Shown here: one piece after another, positions 3,011-28,380 of the stretch
Numbering within the stretch: the stretch's first letter is position 1
Layout: every line of letters begins with the position of its first letter
Sequence record: MN850625.1
Source: Escherichia phage smaasur
Length of the DNA: 41,110 bases
Direction: 5' to 3' (one strand)
Program-made: the position numbers and the translations under genes
The notes under the pieces: model-generated
The model's database searches: none
Told to the model about the DNA's origin: nothing
The model's input: only the letters and a program-made list of their open reading frames with translations

Positions 3011-3558
3011 TATCCTCTCCGAGCACTCTCATAGCGCCACCAGCTCTGACGCTGGCGAGCATTGAATCGACGTTGACGGGTGTGGATAGACTGGCACTGC
3101 TGCAATGCGTTCGCATAGCCGCCAGTAACCGACACCGGGGGATTGTCTCCCATATCATCAGCATACGCAGAGATGGCTGCCTGATACGCAACCAGTCGCT
3201 GGACTGGACTTGGAAGGTCATCCCACTCAAGGTCATAAGTAACCAATCCCGGAACATCCTCAGTAAAAACAAAGGTTTGGGATTGGGCGTTGTAAAGATA
3301 CCCGCCTCGCACGATACACTCAAACCCATCCGGGATGAAGCTCAGTGCGTCTGCGGGGTATTTGACTCGACCATCCGACTCGCGTGGAATGGTGATTCGG
3401 ATGTTGTTGAACCACCAACCGTCAGTGAGAACCTCTTCCTGTGCGATGGCAATCTTGTCAAGGGCAAGAGTGACGGACGGGTTTCGAATCTCAGTCGAGG
3501 ATACGGTGTGCTCAGACAATGCCCGAAGAACGATGTTTACTGCTTCGAGTAGAGTCAC
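3010..3558 (-). CDS. tail tubular protein A (T7 gp11-like), probable GTG start
   Basis: 182 aa, between capsid and tail tubular B; size and position match T7 gp11 (196 aa). Start codon is GTG at 3558-3556, preceded by AGGAGACTTATC. Confidence 0.7.
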   Translation of the reverse strand: MTLLEAVNIVLRALSEHTVSSTEIRNPSVTLALDKIAIAQEEVLTDGWWFNNIRITIPRESDGRVKYPADALSFIPDGFECIVRGGYLYNAQSQTFVFTEDVPGLVTYDLEWDDLPSPVQRLVAYQAAISAYADDMGDNPPVSVTGGYANALQQCQSIHTRQRRFNARQRQSWWRYESARRG

Positions 3559-3585
3559 GATAAGTCTCCTGTAACGACAATCATA

Positions 3586-3608
3586 GAAGCCCCTCAGAGA
3601 AGGGCTTC
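3586..3608 (-). terminator. candidate transcription terminator/attenuator hairpin downstream of the major capsid gene
   Basis: Minus-strand 7-bp GC-rich stem GAAGCCC/GGGCTTC with 9-nt loop, followed by a moderately U-rich tract (tatgattgtcgtt). Position is analogous to T7 Tphi after gene 10. The U tract is imperfect. Confidence 0.35.
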
Positions 3609-5865: not shown

Positions 5866-7428
5866 TTAAATCTGTGCGACGTTCGGCGCTACATCGACTG
5901 CGCCCGGCTGTACGCCTGCGGCAGCGGCTGCTGCATTGTCGATGGCACGGCCTTCATTGGCCAAGTCTTGTGGTGACTTACGATAGTCATCCAGCGCGAC
6001 GCCGTTGGAAGCGAAGATAACCTCAAGGACTTTCTGTGGGTCGATGGTGTTAGCAACGCCGTTGATGTTCTGGACAGCAACCATTGCTGCCTGCGAATCT
6101 GAGAGCGCACGGATGAGCGTCTCTGCTTCGATACTGCGACCGAGGGCATCCAGACCTGCTTCGACTTGAAGGGATAGGATGTTGCCAACGATATCGGGTA
6201 CGGTGGACTCGTCAATCTCCGCGAGCAAGACGTACGCCAGAGGAATCTGGAGGGTCTTCGCCTGCATGGAATACGGGCCACCCAACCCGCGTTCGGCGCT
6301 GGTTGCTACCTGCTGCACTTCGGTTGCGGTGGTACGTTCGGAATCACGGAACTCACCAGTGTACATGAACGCCTGCGCGAGTCGCTGCACAATCTGGTTA
6401 ATTTCGTCACGAGCCTGTTGGACTTTCTGGTAATCCCCGACCTCCAGCCCCTCAAGTTGGGTGCCGGACTGTAGCGGAACCACCTGACCAGTCTCTGCGG
6501 ATTCGATATCGTCAGCGTTGCCGCCTGAGCCAGTCAGCTTCCACAGCACGCGCAAGGCTTCTTGCATGTACAGGGCACTGTGCTCACTCAGCATCGACAG
6601 ACGTGCGAAATCCCCAGCGTGGTCTTCGACAATCCCGCGACCATAATGCTCGCCAGACTTCAAAGACCACACTGGGAAAATCCAAGGGCAGACTTTTTCA
6701 GGGTAGTAATCCTTACCGGGGGTATAAACACAGCCTTGGTAGTTGCCCACCTGCTGCGTCACTTCATAGCCAAAGTTGTTCTGGCGCGGTACACGCTTGA
6801 CGCGAGTGTACAGCCAAATGCGTTTGTTGCCGCTGCAACGGAATCCCTTAGCTTCGAGCTGCTTCTGGAACTCCATAGGCAACGAATCCCACTGGATGCG
6901 CTCCTTGACGATTGCGTCCGTTACAACGCCACGACCGTCGCGCTGCACCACGAAGGATTCCAGACCGTACACACGGTACGTTCCAGTTTCCATATCGCGG
7001 TACAGCGCGGCGTTACCAGTCACGGCTTGCTGGGCAATACATTGGAGCAGGTCGGCATAACCACCGTTCTCTTTGGCTTTATCAACGATGGCTTTCTCAA
7101 TAGTGATGAGTGCCTGATTGACTTGCGACAGTTGCTGCCGCTGCTGTTCAGACACCTTGTTAAGTTTCAGCTTCACGAAACGAGCAGAAGCCGGGAACAG
7201 GAACTCGCCCAATCGAGCAACGAGGTTGTTGACGAGCAGAGCGCCGACAGATTGATAGTCACGAGTAATCTGCTGGCGGTTCATATCGTCCGTGTCAGCT
7301 CGGTCATACTCGCTCACCAGCTTAGCCAGTGTATAGCGGCTGTACTCACGAGCCTTCGTCACAACGTTGCTGTCCCGGTATTTCTGCCACAGAGACTCAT
7401 AGCTGACGTTCTGCGCGTCTTGGGTCAT
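5866..7428 (-). CDS. portal (head-tail connector) protein, T7 gp8-like
   Basis: 520 aa. Contains YRVYGLESFVVQRDGRGVV resembling recalled T7 gp8 YRLSSYVVQRDAFGNVL, and VEAGLDALGRS resembling T7 ISTGLEAIGRGQ. Directly upstream of the scaffold gene. Confidence 0.9.
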   Translation of the reverse strand: MTQDAQNVSYESLWQKYRDSNVVTKAREYSRYTLAKLVSEYDRADTDDMNRQQITRDYQSVGALLVNNLVARLGEFLFPASARFVKLKLNKVSEQQRQQLSQVNQALITIEKAIVDKAKENGGYADLLQCIAQQAVTGNAALYRDMETGTYRVYGLESFVVQRDGRGVVTDAIVKERIQWDSLPMEFQKQLEAKGFRCSGNKRIWLYTRVKRVPRQNNFGYEVTQQVGNYQGCVYTPGKDYYPEKVCPWIFPVWSLKSGEHYGRGIVEDHAGDFARLSMLSEHSALYMQEALRVLWKLTGSGGNADDIESAETGQVVPLQSGTQLEGLEVGDYQKVQQARDEINQIVQRLAQAFMYTGEFRDSERTTATEVQQVATSAERGLGGPYSMQAKTLQIPLAYVLLAEIDESTVPDIVGNILSLQVEAGLDALGRSIEAETLIRALSDSQAAMVAVQNINGVANTIDPQKVLEVIFASNGVALDDYRKSPQDLANEGRAIDNAAAAAAGVQPGAVDVAPNVAQI

Positions 7429-7431
7429 ACG

Positions 7432-7692
7432 TTAACTCCCAATGCCGAGGTTGCTTGCTACACCCGTTCCGGTGCGGCGGCGTCGGCCCGACAGAGTATC
7501 GGAGGCAGAGCTAACCTGACCACCGGACTGAATCGTTGGGGTGTTATCGTTCGACAAGTCGGCTGCGAGGTTGGCCTGCATAGCCTGAGCCTTCACCTGC
7601 GCCGGGTCGGTCTTGATAGTGTACTTCGGGGCTTGGCTACCCAGTCCGAAGACAGAGCCAATACCTTTGAAAACTTTACCTACGCTACCCAT
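7432..7692 (-). CDS. small Gly-rich basic protein immediately upstream of portal (possibly gp7.3-like virion protein)
   Basis: 86 aa. C-terminus SGRRRRTGTGVASNLGIGS resembles my recollection of the T7 gp7.3 C-terminus; position before portal matches. Recollection-based. Confidence 0.4.
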   Translation of the reverse strand: MGSVGKVFKGIGSVFGLGSQAPKYTIKTDPAQVKAQAMQANLAADLSNDNTPTIQSGGQVSSASDTLSGRRRRTGTGVASNLGIGS

Positions 7693-8111
7693 TACGGTTT
7701 CTCCAAATCAATGAATCGGTACTCCTGAACATAAGGACGTACCATGTGGGAGTAACCGCACCAGCGCAACCCAGCTTGCCGGGCAGCGCGTTTGAGTTCG
7801 CGGAGGATGAGACGGGTCACTCCCCGGTTGCGATACTGGGGCCATACATACATGGCCATTACAACGGCGCACGGCCCCACATGAATATCGAACAGCTCAC
7901 CGAGATGAGCACAGCCCATGAGAGCACCGTCAGAATCATGGACGTACACATCTGTGCATCCGTTGGCGGTGGCATCATACATGGCGTCCACTATCACATC
8001 CCACGGTAAATCAGACCATTGGCGTTCATCCTGTATACCTTTGGCTACAGCAGTCCGAATGTCGATTGGCATCGTGGTGTGATGTATGTTGTCCACAACA
8101 GTTACTTTCAT
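7692..8111 (-). CDS. GNAT-family N-acetyltransferase (putative)
   Basis: 139 aa. AVVMAMYVWPQYRNRGVTRLILRELKRAARQAGL fits the GNAT beta4-alpha3 acetyl-CoA-binding pattern. Start ATG sits inside the repeated element ATGAAAGTAACTGTTGTG. Overlaps the upstream small gene by 1 nt (TAATG). Confidence 0.5.
   Translation of the reverse strand: MKVTVVDNIHHTTMPIDIRTAVAKGIQDERQWSDLPWDVIVDAMYDATANGCTDVYVHDSDGALMGCAHLGELFDIHVGPCAVVMAMYVWPQYRNRGVTRLILRELKRAARQAGLRWCGYSHMVRPYVQEYRFIDLEKP
8097..8111 (-). repeat. repeated element ATGAAAGTAACTGTT (copy 1, at the GNAT start codon)
   Basis: Exact 15-mer on the minus strand; extends to 18 nt (ATGAAAGTAACTGTTGTG, 8094-8111) shared with copy 4. Confidence 0.6.
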
Positions 8112-8293
8112 TACACAGTCCTTTCACGGATGAAGTCCAACACGTCCTGTTTACCCGCTTCTCTGTTCAGTAGTGAGATATCTGATTCATGGGTGATGGT
8201 CTTCCCTACCTTCTCCCATGTACCGAATGCCTTCTCTAAGAGAGCTAGTTGTCCTTTGTTGAACGTCACTCTGTCTAATGGTGAGTCTTTCAT
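8111..8293 (-). CDS. small protein (60 aa from MKDSPL), translationally coupled to the downstream GNAT gene
   Basis: ORF track gives 8111..8311; the internal ATG at 8293 has a GGAGA ribosome-binding site, so I start it there. Predicted short beta-strand followed by helix (RVTFNKGQLALLEKAF). Confidence 0.4.
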   Translation of the reverse strand: MKDSPLDRVTFNKGQLALLEKAFGTWEKVGKTITHESDISLLNREAGKQDVLDFIRERTV

Positions 8294-8336
8294 AGAGAAT
8301 CTCCAATGCACTACGAGAGTAATCTGGGTATACCAG

Positions 8337-8351
8337 AACAGTTACTTTCAT
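8337..8351 (-). repeat. repeated element ATGAAAGTAACTGTT (copy 2, just downstream of the RNA polymerase gene)
   Basis: Exact 15-mer on the minus strand, 26 nt downstream of the RNAP stop and 44 nt upstream of the ATG at 8293. Confidence 0.6.
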
Positions 8352-8376
8352 TAAGTGCAAGAAATATAAGACTAAA

Positions 8377-10809
8377 TTAGCAGAAGAATTTGGAGGATTT
8401 CTTGACCTCGTTGATATCCAACTGGCCCCGTGCTGGAGCTTCCTTAGAATATCTCACGGCAAGTTGTTGAATCGGGTCATTTTCCTCGTACATCTGCACG
8501 AATTTTTCACGGATGACTTTGTGCAGTAGACCTGCATGAGCTGCTGCAACACCGAACGAGTCATGAATGGATACCATGTACACCCCGTTATTCCACATCT
8601 CCCACAGGACTTTCGTCATGTGGCTGGCATCCATCGCATGTACAAAATTCGGAGCAATCGCAGCCGCGCATTTGCGACCGTCTGGCTTGTCGATGAACTC
8701 ACGCAGCTTGATGGCATGAACGCCCATCAGCTTGATACCCATAGTGGTCTCTTTGTGAGCCTGATACATGTTCACCACACGCAGACCAGACGGGGCAGTG
8801 AACTCCACATACTCACCGTTAGCCGCCGCCTCAGATGCGATAGCTTGCAGCCATGCCATCAGCTCAGCAGCCTTTGGCACCACGCGAGGAATTGCATCCC
8901 ACATGAACCCGGCGATGTACATTGCGCACTGGAACAGGGTGTACCCTTCCGGTAGCGGAGTGTTGTGCTCCCGTAAATACAGCGCATAGTAATCCACCAT
9001 GCCGTGGCGTGTCGCACCGTACACATAAGTCATCACAGGCTTCTTAGCCATACCGCGCTCTATGCCAGTCTGTATGAGCCACGAACCCAAGACAGTAGGG
9101 TTGGTTGCCTCTGCTTCCTTCAACGCCTCCAGAGCCGCCGTAGCGGTCTTAACGTAGATGTCTGCCTTACGTCCTACTGAATCAATCAGGTTAACCGCAG
9201 CCCCGCCCACCTCGTCACGCAGCATTGCTGAGAGATGTTGCAGACCTGAGCACGTCGCGTCCCACTGTGTCACCACACGGCACGGATACTCTTCCGGGTT
9301 CCCGCTATCCAGCGCACGCACCAGCTCTACCGCAGCCGCCCATGCACACAGTGGGCTGTCAGCCTCAGACCAGAATGAGTCGTATGCCTCTGGCAGACGG
9401 CAAGCCTCGCGCAGTCGCGGCATTGTCTTGTCCGTCCATGCCGCCCGGTCTTCAAAGTCTGTGGAGTCATAGCCGAAGCAGTTGGCCACATGAACCTTCA
9501 ACCAGAACAGACCCTCCTTACCAAGCGGCACCGGGTCAGCCAGCTCAAGCAAAGCACGAATCGCGTCAATGCCTTGCGGGTTCAGGGATGTGGCATAGTA
9601 GCAACGGCCACGAGTGTCGGCGTATGTCGGCAGGTAGATTCGCTCGTACACTTTGTACTGCTCAGCCTCACGCAGCGCACTGCTCAGCGCCTGAATCTGC
9701 GTGGTGAACTTCTTCATGTCGTTGTGGTAAATGCGAGTCTTAACCTTGAACTCGTGCGCCTCAGCGTCCATGCGCTGCTGCATCTCAGCCGGGAACTTGC
9801 TGATGTACTGGCCGAACGTTACGCCTTCCGGGATAGTGAACGGCAGCTTAGGCTCCACTGGAGCAACAGGCAACCCCATCACCCCGGTTCTGTTGGCTTG
9901 TAAGAACTCCAGCACCATCTTGTTCACGCGGAACGGAACGTTTGACAGCATCATGCACGGCTCAATCATCGGTCGTGGGTCAATACCTAACTTGCGATAC
10001 GCCGGGTGCTTGAGCTTGCTGATTACCGCATACGTTGCCGCCTGCCCCGGAGAGTGCCACATACCGCCAAAGCCATTCGCACTGATTTGAGCTGGCGGTA
10101 TAATCAGCGGCGGGTAGCAACTGATGCCGAGGTGTGGCAGCTTCATCCAATCCTCAAGCATGATGAGCACATCGTCATGCAGAGCGAAGTGCGCAGTCGC
10201 CCGGTTCTTCAAGCTACCGCCCACTCGGACAGTCTTGACCAGACCAGTCGGCTCGACAGCACGCATCATCAACTTGCCGATTGTGATGAGCGCACGCTGT
10301 GGCAGGCTTTCAATCTCGACACCAACATTTGCCGAGGCAGCGCGTGCCTTGTTGTAGATGTGGTTTGGCGACTTAGACTTGGACTTATTCACGTCGCGGC
10401 GAACCCTCTCCATATACGCAGCCTCACGCTTACCAGCCCGCTCAGCTCGTGCATAGACTACCTCAGCCATCATTGCCTGCCCCATCTCGCGGAGCAGTTG
10501 AGTCACGGCGGTACGCCCGGTCGCGCCGGACACCGCCATGCTCAGGGCCAGAGACGCGCAGGTCTTGGCCCCGACTTCACGAAGGTACGTGCGGTACTGC
10601 GCACCGAACCCACGAGTAGTTTCGTTCAGGATATCCAGCATTGCAGCTTCGACAGTGGGGTATGCCTCAACCATCGCTCGCTGCAACAGTGGCACCGCCG
10701 AGGCGCGGCCTGAGTCTATCGCATCTCGTACGTTATCTAACCAGCCTGCCCGGTGACGGGCACGCGCCTCTTCTTCCAGTCGAATCTGTTCTGCCAGCAA
10801 ATCCATCAC
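8377..10809 (-). CDS. T7-like single-subunit DNA-directed RNA polymerase
   Basis: 810 aa. [20 protein letters not shown] matches T7 RNAP motif A region [32 protein letters not shown]...SIHDSFG matches T7 motif C region PNFVHSQDGSHL...IHDSFGT. Confidence 0.95.
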   Translation of the reverse strand: [810 protein letters not shown]

Positions 10810-22317: not shown

Positions 22318-22332
22318 TACAGTTACTTTCAT
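22318..22332 (-). repeat. repeated element ATGAAAGTAACTGTa (copy 3, 14/15 match)
   Basis: On the minus strand, 22 nt upstream of the ATG at 22296 of the small membrane protein gene. Confidence 0.55.
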
Positions 22333-22364
22333 GGTGGCATCTCTCACGAAATGCCACGAGTAAG

Positions 22365-27535: not shown

Positions 27536-27779
27536 TACACTCCAGATTGTTAAAGAGCATGGCTAACCGTCTAGCCCACCGTGTAACGATGTTCTGTTAC
27601 CCGGCGATGAGAATTACAGCAAATCACAAAGAGCATTGCAAGTATTATTTTCACTGAATACCTCAAATAGTGGATAAGTTATTGTATTCATTGATAATAA
27701 ATATTTGATTGAATAGGTTATTGCATAGCTTACATACAGCAGAATAACCGTAAATAAATCCTTTTAAATCAATGAGTAA

Positions 27780-27794
27780 ATGAAAGTAACTGTT
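27780..27794 (+). repeat. repeated element ATGAAAGTAACTGTT (copy 4, inverted, at the edge of the T-depleted terminus tract)
   Basis: Exact 15-mer on the plus strand, opposite to all genes; 18-nt identity with copy 1 (ATGAAAGTAACTGTTGTG). Sits at the junction between an AT-rich segment (27640-27780) and the T-depleted tract. Confidence 0.6.
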
Positions 27795-27799
27795 GTGTA

Positions 27800-28380
27800 T
27801 AGCAGTAGCGATACGCAGCGTAAGCGACGCAGCACGCAGTGCGATAGCGGAGCGCGGAGCGGAGCGAATGAGATACGGAGTAGCGAATGAGTGAACGCGA
27901 ACGGATAGCAAGTATCAGAGTGTTACACAGTACACACAGCAGACACACAGCGACGCGATGAGCTGGAGGAGCTGGAGCGCAGGCGGTAGCGCACAGAGTA
28001 CACCGTACACAGTACCGCACAGACACACACAGCAAGCGAGCGCAGGCAGCAGCAGCAACGCACAGAGCAAGCGAGCAAAAGAGATAGATAGCCCCGCGCC
28101 CAGCCACCGACACACAGCAGCACCGCACAGCACAGCGCAGGCCAGCGCAGGCGCGTCCAGTGGTAGCAGTGGCGCAGCGCACAGCAGCAGGACACAGCAC
28201 CGCACAGCACGCCACACGGCAGACGATGAAACGGGCACGCGCGAGCTGTTACCGCACGCACGCGAGCAATACCGCACGCGCAGGCACACGCGCATAATGC
28301 GCACACGTCATGCACGCGCACGCGCACAGGCGTACGGGGGCGCAGGCGCTCCTTCGGGTCGAGGGAGGCCCACGCACAAA
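27800..28380. repeat. strongly T-depleted, degenerate short-repeat tract at the presumed genome terminus
   Basis: Plus strand is almost entirely A/C/G with reiterated CACAG/GCGCAG/CAGCAC units; my hand count gives about 8% T over 27841-28380, and 28021-28080 has none. Lies between the last late gene (endolysin, ends 28435) and the early promoters, where T7-like phages carry terminal repeats and short-repeat arrays. Confidence 0.6.

Follow-up and report, generated by a model that had tools for sequence, protein, structure and literature searches.

A gene pair behind the RNA polymerase gene of Escherichia phage smaasur probably represents gp27 and gp28 (Rac) of the phiKMV group

Between the RNA polymerase (RNAP) and portal genes of Escherichia phage smaasur (MN850625.1; the whole analysed stretch of 41,110 nucleotides is called the window), a gene for a small protein of 60 aa is followed by a gene for a GNAT acetyltransferase of 139 aa, and copies of a repeated element lie close by. 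A preliminary description of this DNA proposed an acquired accessory cassette resembling toxin-antitoxin modules, with a role in counter-defence or host takeover. Does the locus carry such a cassette, or is it a regular part of the phage genome? We consider it probable, at roughly 0.7, that the region comprises the Bonnellvirus versions of phiKMV-group gp27 and gp28 (Rac), the two genes at the head of the transcription unit of the phage RNAP.

The window genome belongs to the genus Bonnellvirus. It is 96% identical to Escherichia phage J8-65 and ~77% identical to 17 further records, and the gene order is the same in all of them. The conserved order at the locus is the RNAP gene, a first copy of the repeated element (P1), the 60-aa gene, a second copy (P2) over the GNAT start codon, the 139-aa GNAT gene, the 86-aa virion gene and the portal gene (Table 1). 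The counterparts of the RNAP, J8-65 gp28 and Lidtsur gp35, are both annotated 'RNA polymerase'. The 60-aa ORF starts with the ATG at 8293, preceded by GGAG 8 nt upstream, and has one base in common with the GNAT gene in a TAATG junction at 8111, confirming the two ORFs and the 1-nt overlap originally described. The ATG of the 86-aa virion gene, the first structural gene, likewise shares 1 nt with the GNAT stop codon (TAATG, 7692). Since the window genome contains at least seven 1-nt overlap junctions of the TAATG kind, the coupling of the gene pair reflects the normal gene packing of this genome. Neither sigma-70 promoters nor intrinsic terminators were found within 7300-8600. An alternative ORF of 54-57 aa (8187..8351/8360) was rejected as a gene: its ATG falls within P1, its overlap with the conserved small gene is out of frame, and the stretch upstream shifts frame among phages. 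Its translation begins with MKVTV, as does that of the GNAT.

Table 1. Coordinates of genes and repeat copies in the window.
Feature	Position	Strand	Remarks
Portal (head-tail connector) gene	5866..7428	-	520-aa ORF; J8-65 gp32
86-aa virion structural protein	7432..7692	-	phrog_35536 'virion structural protein', 2.9e-49; J8-65 gp31
139-aa GNAT acetyltransferase, Rac family (phrog_3986)	7692..8111	-	ORF, Pfam, PHROG
P2, second copy identical to P1	8097..8113	-	Overlaps small-gene stop and GNAT codons 1-5 (MKVTV)
60-aa small helical protein, gp27-like	8111..8293	-	ORF; phrog_6575/5394/4970 family
P1, promoter-like element TAATGAAAGTAACTGTT	8337..8353	-	24 nt past RNAP stop, ~44 nt ahead of small-gene ATG
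Single-subunit phage RNAP gene	8377..10809	-	810-aa ORF; directly upstream of the module
Third copy, 1 mismatch in the 15-mer	22318..22334	-	Ahead of primase/helicase block
Fourth copy	27778..27794	+	Antisense to all genes; non-coding, beside early promoters and genome ends

The 139-aa protein exceeds the cut-offs of two Pfam families, Acetyltransf_1 (E=1.4e-7; 32.2 bits, cut-off 20.7) and Acetyltransf_7 (28.7 bits, cut-off 27). Its AlphaFold (AF2) model (pLDDT 94) has the GNAT fold and matched 230 PDB chains at E<=1e-3 in Foldseek, the best 50 of which, as listed, were GNAT-type acetyltransferases without exception. Profile searches and fold thus agree with the initial assignment as a GNAT. 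Among phage protein families, phrog_3986 matches the protein over its full length (E=1.5e-43) and also contains LKD16 gp28 (2.1e-65), a close homologue of LUZ19 Rac. A tblastn comparison with phiKMV-group gp28 gave ~35% identity and matched 94 Pseudomonas phiKMV-like phages. Motif A is conserved as Y88-V89-x-P91-x-Y93-R94-x-x-G97-V98, and the residues named are invariant or nearly so across 23 homologues. These comparisons establish the window GNAT as a predicted Rac-family enzyme in which the acetyl-CoA motif is intact.

LUZ19 Rac has in common with the window GNAT the family phrog_3986, the GNAT fold, the acetyl-CoA motif YV-x-P-x-YR-x-x-GV, the slot behind the phage RNAP gene and a homologous small protein ahead. 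The two differ in that their identity is ~35% over ~68% (about two-thirds) of the protein, that the window GNAT has 139 instead of 157 aa and lacks a 12-aa insert, and that the window phage has E. coli as its host. In LUZ19, the Rac gene comes immediately after the phage RNAP gene and overlaps the first structural gene with its 3' end (PMC7552054); in the window, the GNAT gene also follows the RNAP gene, and its 3' end likewise extends into the first structural gene. LIMEzero ORF36 is listed as a Rac homologue in Table A1 of the Rac paper (PMC7552054).

Whereas the pair had been assigned to a 'non-core' slot, both genes were found in every Bonnellvirus record (19/19), as well as in relatives among Pantoea, Pseudomonas, Achromobacter and Sphaerotilus phages. 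The proposed check, whether related phages lack the cassette between RNAP and portal, is answered by this presence in all 19 records. The layout of RNAP, small protein, ~134-157-aa GNAT, virion protein and portal is common to LIMEzero, LKD16, phi-2 and the Sphaerotilus and Achromobacter phages. In the Pantoea phage LIMEzero, identities to the window proteins are 56% for the small protein and 55-56% for the GNAT; one motif copy lies behind the RNAP gene, another over the GNAT ATG (start of ORF36), and further copies are found ahead of the primase gene and, in antisense orientation, close to the left end. LIMEzero differs in its motif sequence, ATGAAGGCAAGCACTAAGGA, in an additional 53-aa membrane-like ORF35 that separates the small gene from the GNAT gene, and in a fifth motif copy within ORF45. 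The conserved synteny across several phiKMV-like genera, together with the assignment of the repeat as a phage-RNAP promoter (see below), argues against an acquired cassette. Judged by this conservation, the pair is an ordinary two-gene unit of phiKMV-like phages and part of their core.

The 60-aa protein is 100% identical to J8-65 gp29 and has homologues in LIMEzero ORF34, phiKMV-group gp27 and Achromobacter Axy21_030. Members of its family are assigned to PHROGs 6575, 5394 and 4970; the window protein itself found nothing in Pfam, NCBIfam and PADLOC, and weak matches only in PHROGs. Its AF2 model (pLDDT 86) contains helices at 13-23, 26-32 and 39-57 and had no significant match in the PDB. 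The predicted strand-then-helix N-terminus appears in this monomer model as an isolated beta-bridge, then helices. Similarities to Homeodomain (PF00046) and Phage_Bbp19 were both sub-threshold and partial, and both candidates were rejected. The protein does not show a full-length homeodomain match with the helix-3 WFxNxR signature and a three-helix HTH fold, and a literature search on Bbp19 returned nothing relevant. The ribbon-helix-helix (RHH) and DUF1778 (TacA-type) profiles of Pfam gave no match at E<=1 with the 60-aa protein and 21 family members. As modelled, the protein is a conserved helical hairpin, the counterpart of gp27, and not the RHH antitoxin that had been proposed. Relatives of the small protein in RSB3 and VAC_51 are partnered by a protein without detectable GNAT similarity; RSB3 ORF32 and VAC51_00050 were considered as divergent GNATs, for which support was not found.

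These results bear directly on a toxin-antitoxin module of the TacAT/AtaRT type, in which aminoacyl-tRNA would be the substrate acetylated by the GNAT, and the small upstream protein would be an RHH antitoxin that neutralises the GNAT and represses the operon. As in TacAT, AtaRT and KacAT, the GNAT gene is preceded by, and translationally coupled to, a small gene, and the homologue Rac inhibits growth when expressed alone (PMC7552054). The N-terminal V-T-F-x-x-x-Q-L-x-x-L-E-x-x-F-G of the small protein also superficially resembles the strand and helix of RHH proteins. However, besides the absence of RHH/DUF1778 at E<=1 from the protein and its 21 relatives, no toxin named TacT, AtaT or KacT appeared in PDB sequence searches with the single protein or a profile (E<=10) or among the best 50 Foldseek matches. 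The PDB sequence and fold matches of the GNAT, among those listed, include diamine and thialysine acetyltransferases, AAC and NatD, generic GNATs that lend no weight to the suggested kinship with tRNA-acetylating toxins. PADLOC and NCBIfam gave nothing specific either. Unlike a stand-alone, mobile and patchily distributed module, the pair lies within the late operon of a virulent phage, its GNAT gene is likewise coupled to a virion-protein gene, and both genes are conserved and syntenic in every relative among these lytic phages. In LIMEzero an extra ORF separates the two genes, and the partner of the small protein in RSB3 and VAC_51 is not recognisable as a GNAT. [quoted passage not shown] A neutralising role of the small protein, as first envisaged, also finds no support in the LUZ19 data: expression of Rac by itself was enough to reproduce the phenotype, and neutralisation by gp27 is not among the reported findings (PMC7552054). 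Among 15 LUZ19 genes screened, only gp4, gp5 and gp28 were toxic (PMC7552054); therefore, the gp27 homologue, apparently among those 15, was not toxic. A toxin-antitoxin function is not supported by these observations, and we regard it as highly improbable.

What is the repeated element? The 15-mer ATGAAAGTAACTGTT is present at 8097-8111 and 8337-8351, and four occurrences with <=2 mismatches were found in the window, compared with 0.05 expected. The two local copies had been described as bracketing the pair. They are indeed found at these positions, but they flank only the small gene: one copy lies in the spacer between the RNAP gene and the small gene, the other on the small-gene stop and the GNAT start codon. 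The LIMEzero record labels the site equivalent to P1 'putative phage specific promoter', and the equivalent of the third copy (7294-7313) is the other of the two LIMEzero copies annotated as phage-specific promoters. Equivalents of the third copy also exist in mellemsur and Kc261, and antisense copies are found at the matching relative position in LIMEzero, mellemsur and Kc261. All four relative positions are the same in these three phages, and the motif variant is particular to each. P1 and P2 differ by 1.0 mismatches within a phage versus 3.9 across phages (7 distinct types; permutation p ~4e-4).

Phage promoters mapped in related systems are similarly placed. The 5'-RACE-validated KP34 promoter TAATGTTACAGGAGTA is 16 nt long and located right behind the RNAP gene, and its transcription start site (TSS) is the very next nucleotide after the 16-nt element (PMC6834552). 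Cappable-seq of LUZ19 identified four phage promoters, of which two follow the RNAP gene directly and one is antisense (PMC10914365). P1 shares with the KP34 promoter the 5' TAATG and the site behind the RNAP gene, and the window resembles both phages in having about four copies per genome, one of them right behind the RNAP gene, of a motif of 16-20 nt. The window further resembles LUZ19 in its two copies directly behind the RNAP gene and its single antisense copy in the early region; P1 would be the counterpart of P007 and the fourth copy that of antisense P001 (PMC10914365). In contrast to KP34 and LUZ19, the core sequence of the element is different, the window promoters are predicted from sequence, and one copy also encodes the N-terminus of the GNAT. 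The few near-identical copies, one behind the RNAP gene and one antisense, and the phage-specific variants are features of phiKMV-group promoters, and by analogy the repeated element TAATGAAAGTAACTGTT is a predicted promoter of the phage RNAP. The motif was also located in LKD16 (Phikmvvirus), where the gp27 core is preceded by both promoter copies and neither is on the GNAT start; hence, the layout with a promoter in the start codon is limited to Bonnellvirus and LIMEzero.

Based on the geometry of the KP34 and T7 promoters, transcripts from P1 would carry the small gene, the GNAT gene and the structural genes, and the P1 and P2 starts would fall ~1-3 nt past TAATGAAAGTAACTGT. By the same analogy, P2 transcripts would start ~12-17 nt past the A of the GNAT ATG, so that neither accessory gene would be included and only the expression of structural genes would gain. 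The dose of GNAT might thereby be held low relative to the virion proteins. A more elaborate reading, which we consider quite unlikely, holds that P2 is deliberately dual-coding as a control of GNAT dose and that the 60-aa protein is a dedicated partner or regulator. P2 would then be written into the first five or six GNAT codons in Bonnellvirus and LIMEzero, P2 transcripts would lack the GNAT start, and polymerase on P2 could hinder read-through from P1. As late transcription rises, this would lower the dose of a potentially self-harmful enzyme, and the 60-aa protein would regulate or partner either the GNAT or the phage RNAP, its N-terminus mimicking a homeodomain arm and helix 1.

The placement of the pair as gp27 and gp28 (Rac) also suggests what the GNAT may do. 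[quoted passage not shown] Host takeover is the best-supported function of the window GNAT and is plausible by homology, since LUZ19 Rac, a member of the same family, shuts off transcription in the host. To this extent, the host-takeover part of the preliminary description retains its plausibility. Extrapolating from LUZ19 Rac, the window GNAT would acetylate one or more host proteins near the switch from host RNAP to phage RNAP, and this acetylation would help to shut down host transcription; the route in LUZ19 is cleavage of the RpoA alpha-CTD via host proteases. It is possible, though less likely than not, that the GNAT of the E. coli phage acts on the same target, since LKA1 has a Rac homologue and shows no alpha cleavage, which has been termed 'genus-specific' (PMC7552054).

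Alternatively, the two proteins could form a functional pair other than a toxin and its antitoxin, the small helical protein serving the Rac-like GNAT as specificity factor, chaperone or brake. The genes overlap or nearly abut in Bonnellvirus, Phikmvvirus (gp27/gp28, 4 nt), Achromobacter (26 nt), Sphaerotilus and Macromonas phages, and recombinant Rac is unstable on its own (PMC7552054). However, LUZ19 Rac alone is sufficient for alpha cleavage (PMC7552054), the small protein also adjoins phrog_6472 proteins without detectable GNAT similarity, ORF35 is inserted between the genes in LIMEzero, and fusion proteins were not found. We therefore consider such a pair unlikely. A further alternative is that the target of the GNAT-like protein is not host RNAP but phage components or virion assembly and adsorption, as with T7 gene 7. 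The window GNAT also matches phrog_2746 ('host range and adsorption protein') at 2e-12, a family that includes T7 gp7, and T7 gp7 aligns with the Rac-like profile in hhalign (88.8%, E 2.5e-6). T7 gene 7 occupies a comparable position, flanked by a late promoter with small proteins on one side and by gp7.3 and the portal on the other, and the window GNAT gene is coupled to a virion-protein gene. Yet the acetyl-CoA motif, kept in the window GNAT, is degenerate in T7 gp7, which also lacks a Pfam GNAT signal; Rac, the sole experimentally studied close member of the family, acts on host proteins; and 'host range' as a label goes back to historical annotation. A T7 gene 7-like role is accordingly very unlikely, and T7 gene 7 may instead be a remote, degenerate relative of the Rac-like GNATs.

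The reassignment of this locus as a gp27/Rac module removes a tempting wrong reading, namely a virulent phage carrying a toxin-antitoxin or counter-defence cassette, and places the region in the known framework of gp27/Rac modules and phage-RNAP promoters of phiKMV-like phages. The promoter copy on the GNAT start codon, present in two genera and co-varying with the intergenic copy, offers ready-made variants of RNAP/promoter specificity, and the layout itself is a testable idea of expression control. Rac-family GNATs reach E. coli phages, where their target would be easy to test genetically.

Every gene of the window lies on the minus strand, and the interval between the RNA polymerase and portal genes consists of three short genes of 60, 139 and 86 aa. 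The 60-aa and 139-aa ORFs overlap by 1 nt, as the preliminary description had it, one base being common to both in a TAATG junction. The junction between the 139-aa and 86-aa ORFs at 7692 is of the same type, and the larger ORFs of the genome are joined by 1-nt overlaps of this sort in at least seven places (3010, 7692, 8111, 28971, 30693, 32453 and 35137). The coupling of the pair is therefore the usual packing of this genome and not particular to these two genes.

Genes between RNA polymerase and portal, and copies of the repeated element
Feature	Position	Strand	Remarks
Single-subunit RNA polymerase (RNAP) gene, 810 aa	10809..8377	-	
P1 (copy of the element)	8353-8337	-	24 nt past the RNAP stop
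Small-protein ORF, 60 aa	8293..8111	-	ATG with GGAG 5' of it
P2 (copy of the element)	8113-8097	-	spans the small-gene stop and GNAT codons 1-5
GNAT ORF, 139 aa	8111..7692	-	AAGGA upstream
Third short ORF, 86 aa	7692..7432	-	own GGAG
Portal gene	7428..5866	-	
Copy before the primase/helicase block	22334-22318	-	1 mismatch
Antisense copy	27778-27794	+	opposite to all genes; non-coding region beside early promoters

The assignment of the 139-aa protein to the GNAT acetyltransferases was confirmed by Pfam (Acetyltransf_1, 32.2 bits, cut-off 20.7; Acetyltransf_7, 28.7 bits, cut-off 27) and by an AlphaFold model with 23 homologues as input (pLDDT 94), which has the beta-alpha GNAT topology. Foldseek with this model retrieved 230 PDB chains at E<=1e-3, the best 50 of the 230 being all GNAT-type acetyltransferases. 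The top PHROG was phrog_3986 (E=1.5e-43, full length), the family of LUZ19 gp28, which Ceyssens et al. named Rac (PMC7552054); the same PHROG also takes in LKD16 gp28, an Achromobacter phage ORF that is unannotated, and an 'acetyltransferase' of a Sphaerotilus phage. Table A1 of the Rac paper gives ~90% identity between LKD16 gp28 and LUZ19 gp28 and counts LIMEzero ORF36 among the Rac homologues (PMC7552054); the 139-aa protein shares 55-56% identity with ORF36. A tblastn search matched 117 phage records, 94 of which are Pseudomonas phiKMV-like phages (~35% identity), in the gp28 position every time. The conserved core comprises D75-x-H77-V78-G79 and Y88-V89-x-P91-x-Y93-R94-x-x-G97-V98, the Y88-V98 block being the acetyl-CoA-binding GNAT motif A. 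We regard Rac-family membership and genomic position as established for the 139-aa protein, a status that does not extend to its exact host target.

Among 15 LUZ19 genes screened for toxicity, only gp4, gp5 and gp28 were toxic, and gp28 by itself led to RpoA being cut at Gln244-Glu245, with loss of the alpha-CTD, and lowered transcription by 76% (PMC7552054). The effect depends on the acetyl-CoA pocket, Rac is not itself a protease, and HslU and ClpX are candidate acetylation targets (PMC7552054). The homologue at the same place in phage LKA1 left alpha intact, and the authors considered the effect genus-specific (PMC7552054). Of the host-takeover or counter-defence module proposed initially, a host-takeover role for the 139-aa GNAT is thus plausible via its homology to Rac, whereas the idea of an acquired toxin-antitoxin-like cassette finds no support in the evidence below.

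Over the 1-kb region, identity is 96.3% with Escherichia phage J8-65 (Autographiviridae, Bonnellvirus) and ~77-79% with a further 17 records, whose phages infect Escherichia, Enterobacter, Kosakonia, Cronobacter and Pantoea. J8-65 and Lidtsur are annotated with the same five genes in the same order; the J8-65 record notes them as 'similar to LIMEzero gp33, gp34, gp36, gp37, gp38', and RefSeq calls the Lidtsur orthologue of the 139-aa protein 'GNAT family N-acetyltransferase'. Seven further Bonnellvirus loci have the identical gene layout, with a 1-nt gap instead of the overlap at the small-gene/GNAT junction in six of the seven and a 14-nt spacer in aldrigsur. The order of small protein, then GNAT, is found in Bonnellvirus, LIMEzero, Phikmvvirus, Sphaerotilus, phi-2 and Achromobacter phages; the two Phikmvvirus genes overlap by 4 nt, and in LIMEzero an additional 53-aa ORF35 separates them. 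In Achromobacter phage Axy21 (MK962638), an unannotated 149-aa Rac-family ORF at 3140-3589 (+) shares 26 nt with the gene for the small protein (phrog_3986, 2e-27; hhalign 97%). The record places the minus-strand ORF Axy21_031 over this interval, likely a misannotation, and the Achromobacter GNAT ORF, though unannotated, is real to judge from its sequence.

The 60-aa protein is identical (100%) to J8-65 gp29 and shares 66-75% identity with the remaining Bonnellvirus versions and 56% with LIMEzero ORF34. Profile and alignment searches link it to gp27, the small protein preceding gp28 in the phiKMV group (phikF77, SPCB, DL62; E 1e-15 to 1e-17), and to Achromobacter Axy21_030. The family comprises 82 representative clusters of 56-96 aa, three long outliers excepted, with the signature V-x-F-[TS]-x-x-Q-L-x-x-L-E-x-x-F ... 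A-G-x-Q-x-V-[LI]-x-x-[IV]-R-x-R, and falls into PHROGs 6575, 5394 and 4970, each of unknown function. In its AlphaFold model (pLDDT 86), residues 13-23, 26-32 and 39-57 are helical and an isolated bridge is the only beta structure, and no significant PDB match to the predicted helical-hairpin fold was found. At the N-terminus, V-T-F-[TS]-x-x-Q-L-x-x-L-E-x-x-F(P) resembles the N-terminal arm plus helix 1 of the homeodomain: engrailed, Alx4 and goosecoid are among the PDB profile matches (E 1e-5 to 1e-2), and 7 of the 22 members scanned matched Pfam Homeodomain. These matches all fall short of the gathering score and span only the arm and helix 1, to profile position 42/60. Seven members also matched Phage_Bbp19 sub-threshold. 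We treat both memberships as leads only, the matches being partial and/or sub-threshold.

A GNAT fold with a coupled small gene upstream is also what a GNAT toxin-antitoxin module would present, but none of the 22 family members scanned matched an RHH or DUF1778 profile, even at E<=1. The 139-aa protein has no specific similarity to tRNA-acetylating toxins, its PDB sequence matches and best 50 fold matches being AAC, NatD and acetyltransferases for diamines and thialysine; PADLOC and NCBIfam returned nothing specific, and the genes do not form a stand-alone, patchily distributed module. In Ralstonia RSB3 (3141-3566) and Variovorax VAC_51 (3149-3586), the gene after the small protein encodes 141-145 aa (phrog_6472) with no detectable GNAT similarity, the GNAT slot having been either replaced or diverged past recognition. 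Both phages retain the gp27-like small protein, unannotated in RSB3; thus its conservation is broader than that of the GNAT, an argument against its being a dedicated antitoxin. We consider a toxin-antitoxin module very improbable.

The repeated element ATGAAAGTAACTGTT, with <=2 mismatches, occurs in four copies in the window against 0.05 expected, and reads TAATGAAAGTAACTGTT-s-TG including flanks. The copy at 22318-22334 is followed ~35 nt downstream by an ATG that has GGAGGAG as its ribosome-binding site, and the copy's LIMEzero counterpart (7294-7313) is annotated as a phage-specific promoter. The antisense copy has the AT-rich region of early sigma-70-like promoters on one side and, on the other, 0.5 kb of GC-rich, GT-skewed non-coding sequence (27800-28340) that spans the J8-65 record ends; the copy recurs in LIMEzero (655 -), mellemsur (3818 +) and Kc261 (41494 -), and corresponds to the LUZ19 antisense promoter P001, whose role is hypothesised. 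In LIMEzero the motif, there ATGAAGGCAAGCACTAAGGA, is found at all four corresponding positions and at one more, two copies being annotated 'putative phage specific promoter' in the record, and mellemsur and Kc261 have their own variants at the same four positions. Across ten Bonnellviruses and LIMEzero, the non-coding P1 and the coding P2 share a phage-specific variant (GTAACT, GCTACT, GTGTCT or GTGACT), which shifts GNAT residues 3-4 to match; P1-P2 mismatches average 1.0 within a phage versus 3.9 across phages (7 distinct types; permutation p ~4e-4). The element agrees with experimentally mapped promoters, including the strong KP34 promoter, a 16-mer TAATGTTACAGGAGTA directly after the RNAP gene, with transcription beginning immediately past its last base (PMC6834552). 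Cappable-seq of LUZ19 mapped four phage promoters, one of them antisense and two just behind the RNAP gene (PMC10914365). A scan of 7300-8600 found neither a sigma-70-like promoter nor an intrinsic terminator. We infer from motif and position that the repeated element is a phage-RNAP promoter.

P2 of the window is a perfect 17-nt copy of P1, and P2 of J8-65 (96% identical overall) has two mismatches, one altering GNAT residue 4 from T to S; this contrast points to conversion in the recent past, or to selection on the motif as DNA and not on the protein. A GC-rich hairpin (GCCCCGTCAGTGGCGGGG), which may be a processing or stability element, lies in the P1 5' leader of the RNAP-to-small-gene spacer in the seven further Bonnellvirus loci and is absent from the shorter spacers of the window, J8-65 and Lidtsur. 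An alternative 54-57-aa ORF (8187-8360, -), which begins inside P1 with the MKVTV codons that also open the GNAT gene, overlaps the small gene out of frame. In some relatives the same upstream stretch was annotated in frame, as extra N-terminal residues of the small protein (P0005, P0006). Both are most likely gene-caller artefacts, because the ATG falls inside the promoter motif.

The element copies had been thought to bracket the pair; they flank the small gene only, and serve a conserved operon as regulatory sites instead of bordering a cassette. By analogy to KP34 and T7 geometry, P2 transcripts would start 12-17 nt past the A of the GNAT ATG and would include neither the small gene nor the GNAT. 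With this start inside the GNAT gene, both proteins would depend on P1 or read-through transcripts alone, and the structural genes would receive P1/read-through and P2 transcripts both. In LKD16 both copies lie 5' of the gp27 core, unlike P2 of the window over the GNAT start codon, which confines the promoter-on-start-codon layout to Bonnellvirus and LIMEzero.

T7 (NC_001604) gene 7 ('host range', 133 aa, phrog_2746; 831-1232 of the T7 locus) aligned over 69 columns with the profile of the Rac-like GNATs (hhalign 88.8%, E 2.5e-6) and occupies a comparable slot ahead of gp7.3 and the portal. Its acetyl-CoA motif is degenerate and Pfam gave no GNAT signal, and it may be a remote, inactivated relative. 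The first observation of the pair was largely correct. This kind of module is already known, and the pair is an uncharacterised addition to it; the dual-coding promoter copy P2 is a minor new point, and a remote link to T7 gene 7 is possible.
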